Of a stretch of 34,364 nucleotides of DNA, positions 6,228-31,829 are shown piece by piece. This DNA is from Nitrospirota bacterium (GTDB taxonomy: Bacteria; Nitrospirota; UBA9217), in NCBI GenBank assembly GCA_041491325.1, contig JBGPUS010000001.1, forward strand, positions 1 through 34,364, given 5' to 3'. Under the pieces are notes generated by a model that did no database searches, was not told the origin of the DNA, and was given only the letters and a program-made list of their open reading frames with translations. How positions within the stretch are numbered: position 1 is the stretch's first letter; each line of letters opens with the position of its first letter. The translations under genes and the position numbers were made by a program.

Positions 6228-6566
6228 TTACTGTGATACGTCGGCTCTTCGATCATTATGCTTTTTCCGGGCGATGTTTTTGCTCGCTCTGTTTTGCTCC
6301 CTCGTGAGCTTCCGTCGTTCCTTCTTGGTGAGCTTGCCGTCGGATTTCATACGCGCTTCGTCCTGCTTGATCTTGGTTTGCTGTTTCTCAAGCCTTCCCG
6401 CTTCACCGGGCGTGAGCTGGCCGCTTTTCTCGCCCTGCTCGATCCGCTTTTCCTGGTTCTGCTCCCGTTTCTGAATGCGGGGGTCATCCGTACCCGCATA
6501 GAGCGCGGAGGTCATCAGGAACGTCGCAGCGCTGATGCCGAGAATGGTTTTCATGCAAAGTTTCAT
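6228..6566 (-). CDS. small secreted K/E/Q/R-rich protein, possibly a CpxP/Spy-like LTXXQ-motif periplasmic protein
   Basis: RBS AAGGAG lies 8 nt upstream. Signal peptide MKLCMKTILGISAATFLMTSALYA. Charged, helical-looking remainder with one exact LTXXQ (LTREQ). Confidence 0.55.
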   Translation of the reverse strand: MKLCMKTILGISAATFLMTSALYAGTDDPRIQKREQNQEKRIEQGEKSGQLTPGEAGRLEKQQTKIKQDEARMKSDGKLTKKERRKLTREQNRASKNIARKKHNDRRADVSQ

Positions 6567-6906
6567 GGTGTATCTCCTTATCGAGTGATGGAATTTCTAA
6601 TTACGTATTGCAGCATCCGTGAACGTGCCGCTCCTCCTTTCTCATGGTAATCACGTTCTCTCTGGAGCATCGACAAACTGCTCTATTAGACAGCTCGGTC
6701 AACCAAAGGTTTAACGCTCCATAAAATCTTTTATGTTGAACATTCAGACGAAATATGATGTAATGATAGCACTGTTCTTAAAAGCGGCCTTTGCAACAGC
6801 GGATGATACCCTGCATTCGCGGCAAGCGCTCATAGACGCTGGGCACGAGACACCGTGAAATCCAAAAATCAATAACGTAAGTCAGGAAAAAGTTTCTACG
6901 ACGCCT

Positions 6907-7422
6907 ATGCTCATAACTATCATCGCAGCGATGGACGAAAACCGTGTGATCGGCCGTGACAACCAAATGCCCTGGGACCTTCCTTCGGACCGGAAACGGT
7001 TCCATGCCATCACGCGGGCGCATCCCGTTATCCTGGGCAGGAAAACCTTTGAAAGCATCGGCCGCCCGCTTTCGAACAGGAAGAATATCGTGCTCTCCAG
7101 GCAGGAGGACTACCACGCGGCGGGCTGCACAGTCGTCCACGGTCTGGAAGCGGCGTTTGCCGCGTGCGCGGGCGCGGCCGAGGCGTTTATCTGCGGAGGC
7201 GAAGAGGTCTTCCGCGAGACCATAGCGCTGGCGGACCGCCTCTACCTTACGATCGTGCATGAGGAGTTCGACGGGGACGCCTACTTCCCGGAGATTCCGC
7301 CGTTTTTTGAAGAAGTCGGGCGGAGGACGATCGAGGACTTTATTTCTTATGATATTGTTTTTTACAAAAAGAAGGAACCCATCGCAGTCGCCGAACCGCT
7401 GATGAGCGAGGGACGCCCGTGA
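6907..7422 (+). CDS. folA: dihydrofolate reductase
   Basis: MLITIIAAMDENRVIGRDNQMPWDLPSDRKRF...VILGRKTFESIGRPLSNRKNIVLS is the canonical DHFR N-terminal pattern. Confidence 0.9.
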   Translation: MLITIIAAMDENRVIGRDNQMPWDLPSDRKRFHAITRAHPVILGRKTFESIGRPLSNRKNIVLSRQEDYHAAGCTVVHGLEAAFAACAGAAEAFICGGEEVFRETIALADRLYLTIVHEEFDGDAYFPEIPPFFEEVGRRTIEDFISYDIVFYKKKEPIAVAEPLMSEGRP

Positions 7423-8792
7423 TGAAATCGAAATCCAAAACCGTGTACGTCTGCCAATCCTGCGGGACCCAGTCTCCGCGCTGGATGGGCAAGTGTCCGG
7501 ACTGCGGCCAGTGGAACACCATGGTCGAGGAGCGGGTTGAGAAGCCGAAGGACGTGGGGAGCGCAAAGCGCCGCGACGGGGCGGAGCCGCTCCTGCTGGG
7601 CGATATCCAGACGAGCGACGAGGACCGATTCGTTACGAAGATCGGCGAACTCGACCGCGTGCTCGGCGGCGGCATCGTGTCCGGCTCCGTGGTGCTGATC
7701 GGCGGAGATCCCGGCATCGGCAAGTCAACGCTCGTACTCCAGATGCTTCGGCAGGTATCGGAACTGCGCGGCAAGGCACTCTACGTCTCCGGCGAGGAAT
7801 CGCCGGCGCAGATCAAGATGCGTGCGCTCCGTCTCGGCGTCAAGACGGAGAACCTCTATGTGCTTGCGGAAACGCAGCTCGAGGAAATTATTCACGCGGC
7901 GGATGGATTGCAGCCGCAGGTCCTGGTCGTCGATTCGGTACAAACGGTATTCACCTCGGAGCTTCCGTCGGCGCCGGGCAGCGTGGGCCAGGTGCGCGAG
8001 GTGTCCGGCAGGCTCATGCTGCATGCCAAACGCACGGGCATGCCCACCTTTCTTATCGGTCATGTGACCAAGGATGGCGCCATTGCCGGACCGCGCGTGC
8101 TCGAACACATCGTGGATACGGTGCTTTATTTCGAGGGTGACAAGGGGCACTCTTTCCGCATTTTGCGCGCGGTCAAGAACCGTTTCGGTTCCACGAACGA
8201 AATCGGCGTGTTCGAGATGAAGGAGAGCGGGCTCGCCGAAGTTTCAAATCCGTCGGAAATATTTCTTGCGGAGCGGCCCGCGGACGCAACCGGCTCCGTG
8301 GTGGTCTCGTCCCTCGAGGGTACGCGGCCGATCCTCGCTGAACTCCAGGCCCTGGTCGCCCCGTCGAAGCTTACGATGCCCAGGAGAACCTGCATCGGCG
8401 TCGATTTCAACCGCGTTTCGCTCCTGCTTGCCGTGCTCGAAAAGCGCGTGGGTATGCACCTCATGGGCATGGACGTGTTCGTGAACATCGTGGGCGGGCT
8501 CAAGATCGACGAACCGGCCATCGACCTCGGCGTGATCGCGGCTGTGGCGTCGAGTTTTCGCGAGCGGGCTATCAACGCTCAGACCGTGGTGATGGGTGAA
8601 GTCGGACTTGCCGGCGAAGTACGCGCTATTTCTCAGGCCGAGGCGCGGATCAAGGATGCGGCCAAGCTCGGATTCACGCGCTGTGTGCTGCCTGCGTTGA
8701 ACGTCGAGAAGATGGAGAAATCCGCCGCGATCAGGAAAATGGAACTTATCGGCGTGCGCACGGTGGATGAAGCGATGGAACGCCTTTTTTAA
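7419..8792 (+). CDS. radA: DNA repair protein RadA/Sms (start GTG 7419 or ATG 7422, overlapping the folA stop)
   Basis: Zinc finger CQSCGTQSPRWMGKCPDCGQWNT, Walker A GDPGIGKST, KNRFG motif, Lon-like C-terminal domain. Confidence 0.95.
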   Translation: MMKSKSKTVYVCQSCGTQSPRWMGKCPDCGQWNTMVEERVEKPKDVGSAKRRDGAEPLLLGDIQTSDEDRFVTKIGELDRVLGGGIVSGSVVLIGGDPGIGKSTLVLQMLRQVSELRGKALYVSGEESPAQIKMRALRLGVKTENLYVLAETQLEEIIHAADGLQPQVLVVDSVQTVFTSELPSAPGSVGQVREVSGRLMLHAKRTGMPTFLIGHVTKDGAIAGPRVLEHIVDTVLYFEGDKGHSFRILRAVKNRFGSTNEIGVFEMKESGLAEVSNPSEIFLAERPADATGSVVVSSLEGTRPILAELQALVAPSKLTMPRRTCIGVDFNRVSLLLAVLEKRVGMHLMGMDVFVNIVGGLKIDEPAIDLGVIAAVASSFRERAINAQTVVMGEVGLAGEVRAISQAEARIKDAAKLGFTRCVLPALNVEKMEKSAAIRKMELIGVRTVDEAMERLF

Positions 8793-8835: not shown

Positions 8836-8889
8836 CAAGCGCCAAAGTCTCAAATTCCAATGATTTGGAATTTGGCGCTTGATTTTTGG
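8836..8889 (+). terminator. rho-independent terminator candidate downstream of radA
   Basis: Lower stem caagcgccaaa (8836-8846) pairs with tttggcgcttg (8871-8881). Upper stem ttccaa pairs with ttggaa. The hairpin is followed by aTTTTTgg. Confidence 0.6.
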
Positions 8890-8933
8890 AATGTATTTGT
8901 CATTTGAAGCTTGCGATTTGGTGATTGATTAAT

Positions 8934-10868
8934 ATGGCTATCGGCAAACTCTGGAAATTCTTCGGCAGCAGAACAGGCATGGCAATCCTCCTGGCCCAGC
9001 TCGCCCTCGTTTTGCTGTTCATGTATTTCTATTCCGGCTATCAATCCAGCGACAAGTGCGTCGCCTGTCATGCGAACAAAGAGCGCATGACCACGCTCGG
9101 CTATCCCCAGTTCGTGATGACCCGGGCGCAGGTGCAGAAAGAGGCGCGCCATCCGAACACGGAATGCCGCGATTGCCACTTGGGCAACGGCCTGTCGGAC
9201 GAGCCCGCAAAAGCCCACAGGGGCATCCTGAAGCTGATCGTGCTCGATAACAATTTCGACGTTATGCCGCGCGGCGAACTCGTGAAACAGCTCCTCCCCT
9301 CGGGCAACGACCGGCAGCGGGCCATGCTTCCCCGGCTTCCCGACGGTTCTCTTGTGTACGAAGTCGGCACCATCCTTTACCACGATCGGAACACGACAAC
9401 GCTCGGCTACGATCCGGCACTTGCCGAGAAAACCTGCGGCAAGGCCGCGTGCCATCCCGAAGAAGTAAAGCAGTTCTCTTCGAGTATCATGGGCTCGAAC
9501 TTCCGCCAACGGTCCATGCGCACGTGGAACGACATCCACGGCCCGAATAACTGAGGGCCGTCCTTTGCGGACACCCAGCCGGTCGGCTGGGCCAGAGGCG
9601 ACAAGTTCTCCTTTGAAAATACGGGAAAAATCCGGAAGCAGATCAACCTTCCGCTTTCGAACGATCAGGCAATCGCCAAGCAGAAGGCATGCAATATCTG
9701 CCATGCGGGCTGCCTCGATTGCCACTACGCGCCAACGCGCGAGCGCGGCGCCCACGCATTCAGCCGCACGCCGCCGTCGCCGAACTGCACCGGCGGAGGA
9801 AGAAGCACCTTTGTCTGCCACGCAGGTTCCATGGAAAGGCGGCGCGGGGACAGTTATCTGGGAAAAGAATTATCCGAACCCCCGGGGCTTCCCGAGGATG
9901 CGCACGTCTCAAAGAAAATCGAATGCGCGGACTGTCATCAGACTGGGCCGGGCGGCATGGGCCACCTCGAGCGAAAGGCGACGTGCCAGGACTGCCACCT
10001 CGAGATAGAGCGCGCCGTGCCCGTGAGCATCCACAAGAACCTGACGTGCGAGGCCTGTCACGTGAAAGTCCTCGGCGGATATGAGATGACCTCCTGGGGG
10101 CCGGGCAAAATTGCGTCTCAACCGAACCCGTTTAAAAAGTATTCTTTATATTACGGACCGCAGGGGCCGCCGGTCCTGATCAAAGATCAAAACGGCCGGT
10201 GGATGCCGACGAAGATTTGGCCGAACAGCATGGGAGGATTCAAGGACACGGTCGCTCCGACGCCCGGCCTAACGTTCCGCTGGCCCACGGGAGAAACCCG
10301 GGACGCATACGCGCAGCTCGGGACGTTCAGTTTCCCCGGCGGAAACAACAACTACCTTGCCTGGATTCAGGTCGAGCAGGTGGCGCACCCGCTCGGGAAG
10401 CCCCGCTCATGCAAGAGCTGCCACGGCTCCTCTTCACAAGTCAGTCACGCGACGTGGCGATACTTCGACTCGCAGGGAGCCGAGCCGTTTACGGGAAGTC
10501 AGACGGTGGTGGCGGACGAGAACGGACTTCGGGTAAAAGACATCAAGGCCACGTCGAAGATCAAGTTCATGGAAGACGGCAAAACGGAGTATTTCGCGGC
10601 ATGGCTGCGCTTAGGCGATATTTGGAAGACCAGCGGAAATTTTTCAATTGCCAAGGCCGACCCGGGAAAATACCGCGCTCTCGAACGGGGTTTGAGCAAG
10701 ACGCTTGCAGAACTTGCTGCTATCGACAGGAAATTAAAGTCCCGCGAGGCCAGGGGCCTGGACGTGAAGAAACCGCGGCGCGCGTGGAAAGAGGCAAAGG
10801 CGACGGCGTCGCACGATCCGGGGAGTGCTGCAGCTATGATACGTGAACTTTCCGTTCTGCTTAAATAA
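8934..10868 (+). CDS. membrane-anchored multihaem cytochrome c (644 codons), read through an in-frame TGA at 9552-9554 as a candidate selenocysteine
   Basis: ORFs 8925-9554 and 9831-10868 share a frame. My translation of 9555-9830 has no stop and no ATG/GTG/TTG, and it contains CNICH and CLDCH. Overall there are 8 CXXCH (CVACH, CRDCH, CNICH, CLDCH, CADCH, CQDCH, CEACH, CKSCH) plus CGKAACH (CX4CH). The only TM/signal anchor is at the N-terminus. Confidence 0.7.
9569..9593 (+). promoter_or_regulatory. bacterial SECIS-like stem-loop downstream of the in-frame UGA
   Basis: CCCAGCC (9574-9580), loop GGTC (9581-9584), GGCTGGG (9585-9591): 7 perfect bp. The stem extends through GG (9569-9570) pairing with CC (9592-9593) across an aca bulge. 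The hairpin base lies 14-19 nt after the UGA and the loop about 29 nt after it. Confidence 0.6.
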
Positions 10869-24218: not shown

Positions 24219-25946
24219 GTGCAGAAAGAAATGAATGGGGCTGAAATCATGGTCAAGAGCCTTGAGGACCTTGGGGTAACCCGGATCTTCGGCTACACCG
24301 GCGCAACCATCCTTCCCGTGTATCACGCCCTCGGAAGGAGTTCCATTGCCATAACCGTGAACGCGAATGAGCAAGCAAGCGCCTTCAGCGCCGCGGGATA
24401 TTCCCGGGCGAGCGATCGCGTGGGAGTGGCGGTGGTCACCTCGGGACCCGCCATTACGAATACGCTGACGGCGGTCGCGGATTCGTTTGCCGATTCCGTG
24501 CCCCTGCTCGTGTTTGCCGGACAGGTGCAGCAGAGCCGGCTTGATACCGATGAGTTTCAGCATATTAACGTTAAGGAAGTATTCGCCAAGGCCGCCAAGA
24601 AGGTGATCCTGGTGAACGACGGCTCTGATATCGAAGAGACGATCAAAGACGCCTACTACTATGCGAAGTCGGGCAAACCGGGTCCGGTGGTAATTGATTT
24701 TCCCTACGATATCCAGCGCAAAACAGGCCTCTATCAAGCCAGGGACATTGAGCGGTATCGCCGGAAATACGACCACGAGACCCATCTCGGCAGCAACCAA
24801 TGCCTGCAGTTTTTCGACCTGCTCCAGGGCTCAAAACGGCCCCTGCTCTACATCGGAGGCGGCCTCAATTCCCAGAGGGCCAGCGACAAGATCCGCGAGT
24901 TCAACCGGAAGTTCAATATTCCCTCCATCAATAGTCTCATGGGAAAAGGCATCCTCGACGAGTCGCTCGATACCTCGCTCGGAATGCTGGGGATGTTCGG
25001 AACTCCCTATGCGAACATGGCCATCCAGGAGACGGACCTCTTCGTCGCCTTCGGCGTCCGATGGAACGACCGGGTGGTGCAGAAGGTCGGCGAGTCCGGT
25101 CTGAAAGCCGAGATCGCCTATATCGACATCAATGCCGAGAAAGTACAGGAGGTGCGGGTCACCCGAAACCCGAAGTTCTCCTTTATCGGCGACGCAAGCA
25201 CCGTGCTTGAGGACCTGATTGGATATGCGCAAAAGAACCCCGTCACTTTGAATATTCGTGAATGGCAGGAGCGCGCTGCTTCTCTCAAGCGGCGCTTCCC
25301 GCTCAACTACAATCGCCAGGCAAAAGAGCTCCAGGCTGCCGAGGTGGTGGACCTTCTATCGCGCTCCATGACGGAGGACACTAAAGTCACCACCGGTGTC
25401 GGCCAGCACCAGATGCTCGCCGCGCAATACATGAAGACGGCGCGGCCGAAGTCGTTTATGACGGCGGGGGCCTTCGGGACCATGGGCTTTTCGCTTCCCA
25501 ACGCTATCGGGGTCCACTTTGCGGCCCCGAAAGCCAGGGTGATCGCCATCGACGGAGACAGCAGCATAAAAATGAATATGGGAGAGATCCATACCATCGG
25601 TTCTCTGGGGCTTCCGATTAAAGTACTGCTTCTGAACAACCACGCAGACGGCATGGTAAGAACCATCCAGGCGGTGTTCTACGATCGCCGGTTTACCGCG
25701 TCGGAACGGGGTTTTGACGCGAACTTTGCCGCCATCGCCAAAGAGTGCGGGTTCTTGTGGTGTCGCAAGATCAGCAAACGCGAGGAACTGGAACCGTCGA
25801 TGAAAGAATTTTTGACCGCCGAAGGGCCCTGTTTCCTCGAAGTTGTCACGGACCAGGAGGAGGGGGTCTTTCCGGTCATTCCGCAGGGCAAGGGATACAA
25901 AGACATGATCCTCGGCCCCTCTATCAAGGAAGTTGCGGAAGGCTGA
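24219..25946 (+). CDS. acetolactate synthase large-subunit-like thiamine-pyrophosphate enzyme; no small-subunit gene follows
   Basis: RBS AGGAGG lies upstream of the GTG. GAEIMVKSLEDLGVTRIFGYTGATILPVYHAL (TPP N domain). GTMGFSLPNAIG...IDGDSSIKMNMGE (TPP-binding GDG motif). Confidence 0.85.
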   Translation: MQKEMNGAEIMVKSLEDLGVTRIFGYTGATILPVYHALGRSSIAITVNANEQASAFSAAGYSRASDRVGVAVVTSGPAITNTLTAVADSFADSVPLLVFAGQVQQSRLDTDEFQHINVKEVFAKAAKKVILVNDGSDIEETIKDAYYYAKSGKPGPVVIDFPYDIQRKTGLYQARDIERYRRKYDHETHLGSNQCLQFFDLLQGSKRPLLYIGGGLNSQRASDKIREFNRKFNIPSINSLMGKGILDESLDTSLGMLGMFGTPYANMAIQETDLFVAFGVRWNDRVVQKVGESGLKAEIAYIDINAEKVQEVRVTRNPKFSFIGDASTVLEDLIGYAQKNPVTLNIREWQERAASLKRRFPLNYNRQAKELQAAEVVDLLSRSMTEDTKVTTGVGQHQMLAAQYMKTARPKSFMTAGAFGTMGFSLPNAIGVHFAAPKARVIAIDGDSSIKMNMGEIHTIGSLGLPIKVLLLNNHADGMVRTIQAVFYDRRFTASERGFDANFAAIAKECGFLWCRKISKREELEPSMKEFLTAEGPCFLEVVTDQEEGVFPVIPQGKGYKDMILGPSIKEVAEG

Positions 25947-30581: not shown

Positions 30582-30667
30582 ACAGGATAACAGGATTGAC
30601 AGGATTTTTTACGTTTTACCCGCTCTTATCCTGTAATCCTGTCAAAATGAATTCTTGGTTCCGGCTT
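30581..30667. repeat. interspersed repeat family 2, copy 2 (CAGGAT palindromic element; likely also a terminator hairpin)
   Basis: gacaggataacaggat (30581-30596) pairs with atcctgtaatcctgtc (30628-30643) at 15 of 16 positions. It starts on the last base of the Yip1 stop codon. Confidence 0.75.
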
Positions 30668-30707
30668 GTCGGACAGGGAGTCAAATAAAGATTATGAGGA
30701 TTTATCG

Positions 30708-31829
30708 ATGAAACGAATCTACCTCGATTATAACGCCAGCACTCCTGTTGATTCCCGGGTCCTGGATGAAATGCTGCCGTATCTCAGGGAGAAGTACGGG
30801 AACCCTTCGAGCAGCCACTCCTTCGGCGTTGCGTGCAGGTCGGGTATCGAGCAGGCGCGAGAGCGCCTGGCGGTCCTCCTCGGGTGCGAGGCAGCGGAGT
30901 TGATCTTTACCAGCGGGGCCACGGAATCGAATAATATGGTTATCCACGGCGTTGCAGCCTCGGCGCCCGCCGGGAGCCATATCATCACGTCCCGGATCGA
31001 ACATCCGGCCGTGCTGGAGCCGTGCCGTCGGCTTGAAACACGGGGCTACGCGGTAACGTATCTTCCGGTTGACGAGTACGGCATGGTGCGAGCCAAGGAC
31101 CTTGAAAAAGCGATCACGCCCAAGACCGTTCTTATCACGATCATGCACGCGAACAACGAGGTCGGGACCATTCAGCCGATTTCCGAACTCAGCCGCATTG
31201 CGCGGGAACGCGGCGTGCTGTTTCATACGGACGCGGCGCAGAGCGTCGGCAAGATCCCGGTCCGGGTGGAGGAACTCGGCGTGGATTTTCTGACCATAGC
31301 GGGGCACAAGTTTTATGCTCCGAAGGGGATCGGGGCCTTGTTTATAAAAAGCGGGAGGAAGCTCGAACCGCTGTTTCACGGCGCAGGGCATGAGCGGGGC
31401 TTGAGGCCGGGGACGGAGAACGCAGCGTTCATCGTCGGGCTCGGCATGGCAAGCCTGATCTCCGCCGAAAGCCTCGACGTGGAAGGGCCGCGTCAGGCGC
31501 GGCTCGGCAAGCGGCTGTTCGACGGTCTGAAGCAGGCCGGGTTCGGCGTGAGCCTGAACGGGCACCCGGAGAAAAAACTTCCCAACACCTGGAACATAAG
31601 CTTTGCGGGCCATGACGCCGTGACTATCATGGCGTCGCTGACCGACGTGGCGGTGTCTCCCGGCGCCGCCTGTCACGGAGACCTTGTCGAGCCGTCTCAC
31701 GTGCTTTCCGCCATGGGCGCGGACCCCGCACTGGCCCGGGGCGCCGTCCGCTTCAGCCTCGGGAGGGAAACGACCGAGGCGGAAATAGATGAAGTCCTGG
31801 CGAGAATAAAGGCGGAATTGGGCCGGTGA
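30708..31829 (+). CDS. cysteine desulfurase (NifS/IscS-like class V aminotransferase)
   Basis: RIYLDYNASTP...GNPSSSHSFG...FTSGATESNN...HKFYAPKGIGAL (PLP lysine)...SPGAACH (catalytic Cys). Confidence 0.9.
   Translation: MKRIYLDYNASTPVDSRVLDEMLPYLREKYGNPSSSHSFGVACRSGIEQARERLAVLLGCEAAELIFTSGATESNNMVIHGVAASAPAGSHIITSRIEHPAVLEPCRRLETRGYAVTYLPVDEYGMVRAKDLEKAITPKTVLITIMHANNEVGTIQPISELSRIARERGVLFHTDAAQSVGKIPVRVEELGVDFLTIAGHKFYAPKGIGALFIKSGRKLEPLFHGAGHERGLRPGTENAAFIVGLGMASLISAESLDVEGPRQARLGKRLFDGLKQAGFGVSLNGHPEKKLPNTWNISFAGHDAVTIMASLTDVAVSPGAACHGDLVEPSHVLSAMGADPALARGAVRFSLGRETTEAEIDEVLARIKAELGR

Follow-up and report, generated by a model that had tools for sequence, protein, structure and literature searches.

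The 34,364-nucleotide (nt) stretch analysed here (the window; positions 1 to 34,364 of contig JBGPUS010000001.1, assembly GCA_041491325.1, from a Nitrospirota bacterium) carries a gene for a multihaem cytochrome c whose reading frame is crossed by an in-frame UGA at 9552-9554 on the forward strand. A hairpin with the apical loop GGUC follows this codon within the coding sequence. We consider it very probable, from the comparison of related genes, that the hairpin is a bacterial selenocysteine insertion sequence (SECIS) directing the insertion of selenocysteine (Sec) at the UGA.

A multihaem cytochrome gene crossed by an in-frame UGA

The segments 8925/8934-9554 and 9555-10868 join in one reading frame, and the TGA, whose position was confirmed by a sequence check, is its sole internal stop. 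The mechanical open reading frame (ORF) starts at a TTG at 8925, and the ATG at 8934 agrees with the N-termini of the homologues (MAIGKLW...). The gene and the two ORFs into which it is split by annotation are as follows.

8934..10868, + strand: predicted selenoprotein gene of 644 codons plus TAA, multihaem cytochrome c, putative Sec at codon 207
8934-9554 and 9831-10868 (window) or 6325-6945 and 7222-8259 (locus L130): split calls of 206 + 345 amino acids (aa)

The gene product matches Pfam Cytochrome_C7. It has an N-terminal hydrophobic membrane anchor, eight CxxCH motifs and conserved CX4CH and CX9CH motifs. The predicted cytochrome has 644 residues and about ten haems, is anchored in the membrane and faces the periplasm. 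The CX4CH motif (TCGKxxCH; 9444-9464, C171-H177) and the CX9CH motif (9795-9830, C288-H299) are both invariant and non-canonical, and are candidate haem-binding sites. Residue 207, Sec or cysteine (Cys), comes after haem motif 3 and before haem motif 4, in NN-U-GPSFAD, and is the only invariant cysteine position outside the haem-binding motifs.

The split calls are found in GCA_041483335.1 (JBGPFK010000011.1) and in a JGI contig, where the gene is called as one ORF of 206 aa and another of 345 aa. The 276 nt left 'intergenic' between both calls are in frame and encode GPSFAD and two CxxCH motifs. The first ATG downstream of the UGA comes 93 codons on, and GPSFAD and the two CxxCH motifs fall before it. 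A start at this ATG would leave out these invariant motifs, and the UGA must therefore be read through for the conserved sequence to be made.

A stem-loop with a GGUC loop 3′ of the UGA

The sequence around the codon (9540-9600) reads ...AATAAC TGA GGG CCG TCC TTT GCG GAC ACC CAG CCG GTC GGC TGG GCC AGA GGC... and contains the following elements, all on the forward strand.

9574-9591, + strand: upper hairpin of the putative SECIS, 5′ arm CCCAGCC (9574-9580), loop GGUC (9581-9584), 3′ arm GGCUGGG (9585-9591)
9562-9566, + strand: candidate lower helix, 5′ side (columns 11-15 of the alignment; RNAalifold, 34 sequences)
9594-9598, + strand: candidate lower helix, 3′ side (columns 43-47 of the alignment; RNAalifold, 34 sequences)
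9569-9570, + strand: GG with the option of pairing with CC 9592-9593 across the bulge ACA (9571-9573), as seen in the RNAfold structure of the window

The spacer between the UGA and the stem (9555-9573) is 19 nt. RNAfold on 9568-9597 returns exactly the 7-bp stem and GGUC loop, at -15.0 kcal/mol, and the coordinates given for the UGA, spacer, stem and loop in the original prediction were all confirmed, as was its stem-loop by folding. With the lower helix included, the hairpin reaches -20.7 kcal/mol. The prediction had also extended the stem by GG/CC. This pairing occurs in the fold of the window but is not conserved as such, as the relatives have G, A or T in column 42. A better-conserved extension is the lower helix, in which +11 to +15 pair with +43 to +47. 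It is compatible with nearly all of the 34 sequences and varies by one-sided changes only, and its support is weaker than that of the upper hairpin.

The bacterial SECIS (bSECIS) model quoted in a 2026 review (PMC13188914, summarising Zhang and Gladyshev) allows 3-9 nt in the loop and 4-16 bp in the upper stem, asks for a G within the first two positions of the loop (G[G|U]), and places the loop 16-37 nt from the UGA, with a minimum free energy of at most -7.5 kcal/mol. As the original prediction had proposed for spacing, stem length and loop, the window hairpin lies within every one of the values quoted there (loop 4 nt, stem 7 bp, GG, 26 nt, -15.0 kcal/mol). We see no difference between it and that quoted consensus; most members of its clade have instead 3 + 3 bp split by a 1x1 mismatch. 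The other marks of a bSECIS are present as well, namely the placement of the stem-loop within the coding sequence, directly 3′ of the in-frame UGA, a Sec/Cys pair among homologues, and a structure that accompanies UGA and is not required with Cys.

To set a chance level, we re-implemented the published bSECIS criteria and ran them on 300 random UGAs of the window, on both strands. A hairpin as stable as the real element followed only 0.7% of these UGAs. The signal from the single sequence is moderate, and the strength of the case comes from the comparative evidence.

The UGA falls on an invariant cysteine

A search of 5.8 billion proteins returned two classes of matches. The first consists of full-length proteins with 47-70% identity, all with Cys at the UGA position in the motif GP-x-N-C-GPSFAD. 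The closest relatives (71-78% identity) form the second class and are present only as fragments of 390-430 aa that start just past the UGA position, the pattern expected from gene callers stopping at a TGA. In public records these fragments are unnamed or called 'hypothetical protein'.

A scan of GTDB species-representative genomes yielded 80 loci including the window, nearly all labelled Nitrospirota. The homologous codon is TGA in 39 of them (including the window), TGC in 28 and TGT in 13, which gives 41 Cys genes. The TGA column aligns with the invariant Cys of GP-x-N-C-GPSFAD, and the full-length Cys homologues align without gaps over the UGA junction. After a metagenome scan, TGA-form genes with an intact frame amount to at least 47 assemblies, 34 from the clade of the window and 13 from a distant clade. 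Global recoding of TGA is ruled out, as 18 of the 33 mechanically chosen ORFs of the window use TGA as an ordinary stop, more than use any other stop codon.

The residue two positions before the Sec/Cys tracks the site. The Sec forms of the distant clade are all GPQN-U and most Cys forms are GPHN-C. GPQN-C occurs in several Cys genes nested in or next to the Sec clade (L060, L063, L083 and L088), but also in L068 and L071. In the clade of the window, GPNN precedes either Sec or Cys (9543-9551 in the window).

One locus, L001 (JBLMWN010000077.1), is labelled 'Betaproteobacteria bacterium MAG281', and its cytochrome gene is 77% identical to that of the window and lies inside the Nitrospirota Sec clade. 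This placement points to an error in binning or labelling, or perhaps to a transfer of the gene.

Selection on the RNA in the clade of the window

All 34 TGA genes of this clade, which come from as many different assemblies, have the pattern CCC-N-GCC GGUC GGC-N-GGG at +23 to +40. The GGUC of the loop does not vary (34/34), and the UGA-to-loop distance of 26 nt (9555-9580) is identical in all members. Six of the seven upper-stem pairs are always standard pairs across the TGA orthologues, either invariant or wobble-compatible. The middle pair is U-A in 10 of the 33 distinct sequences, G-C in one, A-U only in the window, and mismatched, mostly A.A, in 21. The perfect 7-bp stem of the original prediction thus holds for the window, but its perfection is confined to this genome.

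Synonymous sites in the hairpin are under selection at the RNA level. The third positions of codons +1 to +6 vary freely (0.5-1.5 bits), whereas codons +7 and +9 to +11 are frozen (ACC 34/34, CCG 34/34, GTC 34/34 and GGC 33/34). Across the gene, 187 conserved codons of at least 4-fold degeneracy have a mean of 1.37 bits. Only seven of these 187 are at or below 0.2 bits, and four of the seven are the hairpin codons +7 and +9 to +11. The gene-wide minimum of 6-codon synonymous variation is the stretch starting at +7.

The protein sequence itself is visibly constrained by the RNA, to judge from the aligned sequences. The peptide PVG, encoded by C-CG-GUC-GG, is fixed only in the Sec forms; it occurs in 34 of 34, compared with none of the eight close Cys forms, which have PAG, PTG, PRH, PSG or PAR in its place.

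A different hairpin at the same site in a distant clade

A further TGA clade, with 45-48% identity to the protein of the window, was found in five genomes and, with eight more from the metagenome scan, comprises 13 genes. All 13 have a hairpin at +22 to +40, NNNCCUCC-G(G/U)C-GGAGGNNN, which differs from that of the window and is capped by a triloop, GGC or GUC (or by the pentaloop CGGCG). Here, 93% of the cells are paired, and sliding the partner lowers this to 38-66%. In three pairs both bases have changed, and one of these changes, U-A to C-G in L089, came about by the replacement of E with G in the protein. The clade scores 0.200 for covariation, compared with 0.130 +/- 0.019 in shuffles, and 3 of 500 shuffles reach 0.200. 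A hairpin is thus kept in every TGA orthologue examined in the two clades (34/34 and 13/13), and compensatory changes, the other sign of conservation named in the original prediction, are present in the distant clade.

Hairpins in the Cys genes

The original prediction had noted that an identical hairpin kept in TGC orthologues would make the structure a mere consequence of the peptide. The median of the best local hairpin is -6.0 kcal/mol in the 41 Cys genes and -11.2 kcal/mol in the 39 Sec genes (Mann-Whitney p = 1.3e-7), and the homologous 26 nt fold at 0 to -6 kcal/mol in remote Cys genes and at -7.9 to -15.4 kcal/mol in Sec genes. The PPAEV peptide of the distant Sec clade is also encoded by the Cys genes L112 and L113, with GCA GAA and not GCG GAG, and these two genes have no hairpin. 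In a neighbour-joining ordering, the Cys genes that keep a hairpin all sit inside Sec clades. None of the three refuting outcomes named in the original prediction thus came about in a form that speaks against a SECIS. Four of the nested genes, with TGC or TGT at the site, are listed here.

L063, 3628-3681: Cys form; hairpin intact, GGC loop
L083, 2128-2181: Cys form; hairpin intact, GGC loop
L090, 2128-2181: Cys form; stem kept, loop now AAA
L019, 3619-3672: Cys form; outer arms kept, upper arm and loop destroyed

By their sequence and placement, we read these hairpins as SECIS fossils that remained after recent changes from Sec to Cys. Such changes are called rare in bacteria by the 2026 review (PMC13188914).

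Comparison with E. coli fdhF and a proposed mechanism

The original prediction had stated that the fdhF hairpin of E. coli carries the same GGUC loop. As a literature search on GGUC in SECIS elements found nothing, we turned to the E. coli genomes themselves to verify the loop. The 46-mer that follows the fdhF UGA occurs in 5,413 E. coli records at at least 99% identity, under the fdhF annotation, and its fold has the apical loop GGUC at nt 22-25, three pairs under the loop and then an irregularity, so the statement was right.

The two elements share several features. Both hairpins lie within coding sequence just 3′ of the UGA, both have the identical apical tetraloop GGUC, and in both the UGA can join a longer lower helix. 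The three base pairs under the loop are followed by a bulged U in fdhF and by a 1x1 mismatch in most of the distinct relatives of the window. However, the loop starts 26 nt after the UGA in the window and 18 nt after it in fdhF (nt 30 against nt 22), a spacing 8 nt longer, and the loop-closing pair is C-G in the window and A-U in fdhF. The window stem is fully paired and lacks the bulged U of fdhF, so that neither the fdhF-type bulge nor its spacing is found here. The host protein and the phylum also differ.

A mechanism can be modelled on the E. coli paradigm. With the UGA in the A site of the ribosome, the upper hairpin, 19 nt downstream, would stand just outside the mRNA channel and stay folded. 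SelB in complex with GTP (guanosine triphosphate) and Sec-tRNA(Sec) would bind the G-rich apical loop GGUC and bring the tRNA to the UGA, competing there with RF2, and translation would then run on to 10868. By this analogy, SelB would recognize the hairpin and Sec would be inserted, with Sec207 taking the place of the only invariant cysteine outside the haem-binding motifs.

Alternative explanations

Several observations weigh against a SECIS at this locus. The bSECIS criteria alone are permissive, since 14% of the 300 random window UGAs precede some qualifying hairpin, and the middle pair of the stem is mismatched in 21 of the 33 distinct relatives. The covariation score in the clade of the window is 0.037 against 0.033 in shuffles; covariation has no power there, as the helix is almost invariant. 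None of selA, selB, selC, selD or any tRNA gene was found within the window. The covariance-model scan proposed with the original prediction gave no SECIS match either, neither in Rfam at the gathering score over the whole window nor at E <= 10 over 9500-9660, where only chance-level ZMP-ZTP and ar15 hits appeared. To our knowledge, bacterial hairpins of this type are not what the Rfam SECIS models were built on, and we therefore judge this negative uninformative, while the explicit bSECIS values given above all agree with the element. The eight neighbouring genes compared with Pfam include none of the Sec pathway, and no tRNA genes were found in 40 related loci.

The hairpin could be a by-product of the peptide T-Q-P-V-G-W-A and of GC-rich codon usage, with no function as RNA. 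The region is indeed coding and GC-rich, the fold of 9568-9597 is only moderately better than shuffles (z = -2.0, with 7 of 200 shuffles folding equally well), and the permissiveness noted above adds to this. However, synonymous sites are frozen in the hairpin while the flanking codons are free, and PVG is conserved in the TGA forms and absent from the close Cys forms. Moreover, L112 and L113 encode the identical PPAEV with helix-breaking codons, and in L089 it is the amino acid that changed, the E-to-G replacement restoring a pair. We regard this explanation as already largely refuted and as very improbable.

A real stop would leave two genes, for cytochromes of 206 and 345 aa, or a pseudogene, with a hairpin that is irrelevant or intercistronic. 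The public calls in GCA_041483335.1 are split in this way, and C-terminal fragments are recorded as separate 'hypothetical proteins'. Against this, the 276 nt between the calls are in frame and hold the invariant GPSFAD and two CxxCH motifs, the frame is intact in 47 independent TGA genes, the Cys homologues cross the junction without gaps, and the TGA falls exactly on the invariant Cys. There is also no U-tract 3′ of the hairpin, which rules out a transcription terminator. Termination at this codon is thus highly unlikely, if marginally less so than a hairpin that merely follows from the peptide. It is also conceivable that read-through inserts tryptophan or Cys by a near-cognate tRNA and that the hairpin stimulates it without SelB, as the chemistry at a UGA is not readable from sequence. 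However, a UGA in place of Cys with a G-loop hairpin 16-37 nt downstream is a specific bacterial Sec signature (PMC13188914), and TGA is a normal stop in 18 of the 33 window ORFs. Sec use has moreover been reported for the phylum, both as a Sec-type MccSep in Nitrospirota (PMC13510729) and as a selC embedded in selB in Nitrospirae (PMC13188914). We give the insertion of an ordinary amino acid as little credence as the by-product explanation, and a SECIS-directed Sec at the UGA is the reading that we retain.

An apparently uncatalogued cytochrome selenoprotein family

The 2026 review lists three cytochrome-type selenoprotein families, ExtKL (NF040886), the GSU2204 family (NF041027) and the OTR family (TIGR04315) (PMC13188914). 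The window protein matched no NCBIfam family at E <= 0.1, these three included, and its cytochrome family was not found in current selenoprotein lists. The OTR and GSU2204 families resemble it in being c-type cytochromes or CXXCH proteins with Sec members, and the lack of an NCBIfam match at that threshold rules out both.

The closest parallel is MccSep/ExtKL (GSU2937-2936) of Geobacter, a five-haem Sec polysulfide reductase characterised in 2026 (PMC13510729; PDB 9wt8). As in the window, this is a multihaem cytochrome c with one Sec from an in-frame UGA followed by a SECIS-like hairpin, annotation splits the gene into two ORFs, Cys-type homologues exist, and the family occurs in Nitrospirota. 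However, MccSep has five haem motifs and the window protein about ten, and the deposited PDB chain of MccSep is 450 aa long, compared with 644 aa and a membrane anchor here. The Sec of MccSep (Sec325) lies in a C-terminal immunoglobulin-like domain in the motif DG-U-PTPNR (PMC13510729), whereas that of the window lies between haem motifs. Our family profile did not match 9wt8 or 9wt9 at E <= 1, although both are present in the PDB library. The different architecture and the absence of a match by the profile or by NF040886 rule out identity with MccSep/ExtKL. The window cytochrome would thus apparently belong to an uncatalogued selenoprotein family, distinct from MccSep/ExtKL, OTR and GSU2204.

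There are six invariant non-motif histidines for about ten haems, so several haems need non-histidine distal ligands or have an open site. With so few free histidines and a single invariant Cys outside the haem motifs, residue 207 is plausible as a haem ligand or active-site residue. Sec207 may act as a distal haem ligand or as a catalytic nucleophile at an open haem, which is pure inference. The Cys homologue P0001 (70% identity), as modelled with AlphaFold2 (predicted local distance difference test score, 81.9), has an alpha-helical haem-binding region, a beta-sandwich at about residues 386-540 and C-terminal helices. Foldseek found no significant neighbour of this model in the PDB and thus no clue to function; multihaem cytochromes modelled in the apo form make poor queries for structure searches. 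The family profile found only weak local haem-motif matches, to NrfA and NrfH, among PDB sequences.

Taken as a whole, the picture of an uncatalogued, membrane-anchored Nitrospirota selenoprotein with about ten haems, in which Sec serves as haem ligand or nucleophile and which has repeatedly reverted to Cys and left fossil hairpins, is tentative, and we hold it slightly more likely to fail in some part than to stand complete. If it is true, this would be a second multihaem cytochrome selenoprotein, unrelated to MccSep, in a phylum that matters for sulfur, iron and nitrogen cycling, and a selenolate-haem site would be new chemistry. The Sec would mark its residue as a likely redox-active or catalytic site and so offer a handle on the function of an uncharacterised cytochrome. 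On the side of annotation, the split of the gene has cost protein databases roughly 90 codons with two haem motifs. The site may also serve as a natural experiment in SECIS evolution, with two different hairpins at one position, a peptide constrained by its RNA and apparent fossils in Cys revertants. The GGUC loop common to one clade and to E. coli fdhF raises the question of how far loop recognition by SelB is conserved across phyla.

Genomic context

A search of the window and all loci for GGUC hairpins with a 3-bp G/C stem, including the GCC-GGUC-GGC core, gave no second one with a correctly spaced upstream UGA. The scan of the window for further ORFs broken by TGA returned only an antisense artefact at 24831 on the minus strand, a mechanical ORF, not a gene, which lies opposite a 575-aa gene at 24219-25946. 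Similarly, a 323-aa antisense ORF (8850-9821, minus strand) overlaps the cytochrome gene and is an artefact of GC-rich coding DNA. The neighbouring genes, which encode DHFR, RadA, a nitroreductase and a TRIC-like protein, give no functional hint. A class-V aminotransferase (Pfam Aminotran_5; cysteine desulfurase/selenocysteine lyase type) is encoded 20 kb downstream, at 30666-31829 on the forward strand, and may be an ordinary NifS/IscS.

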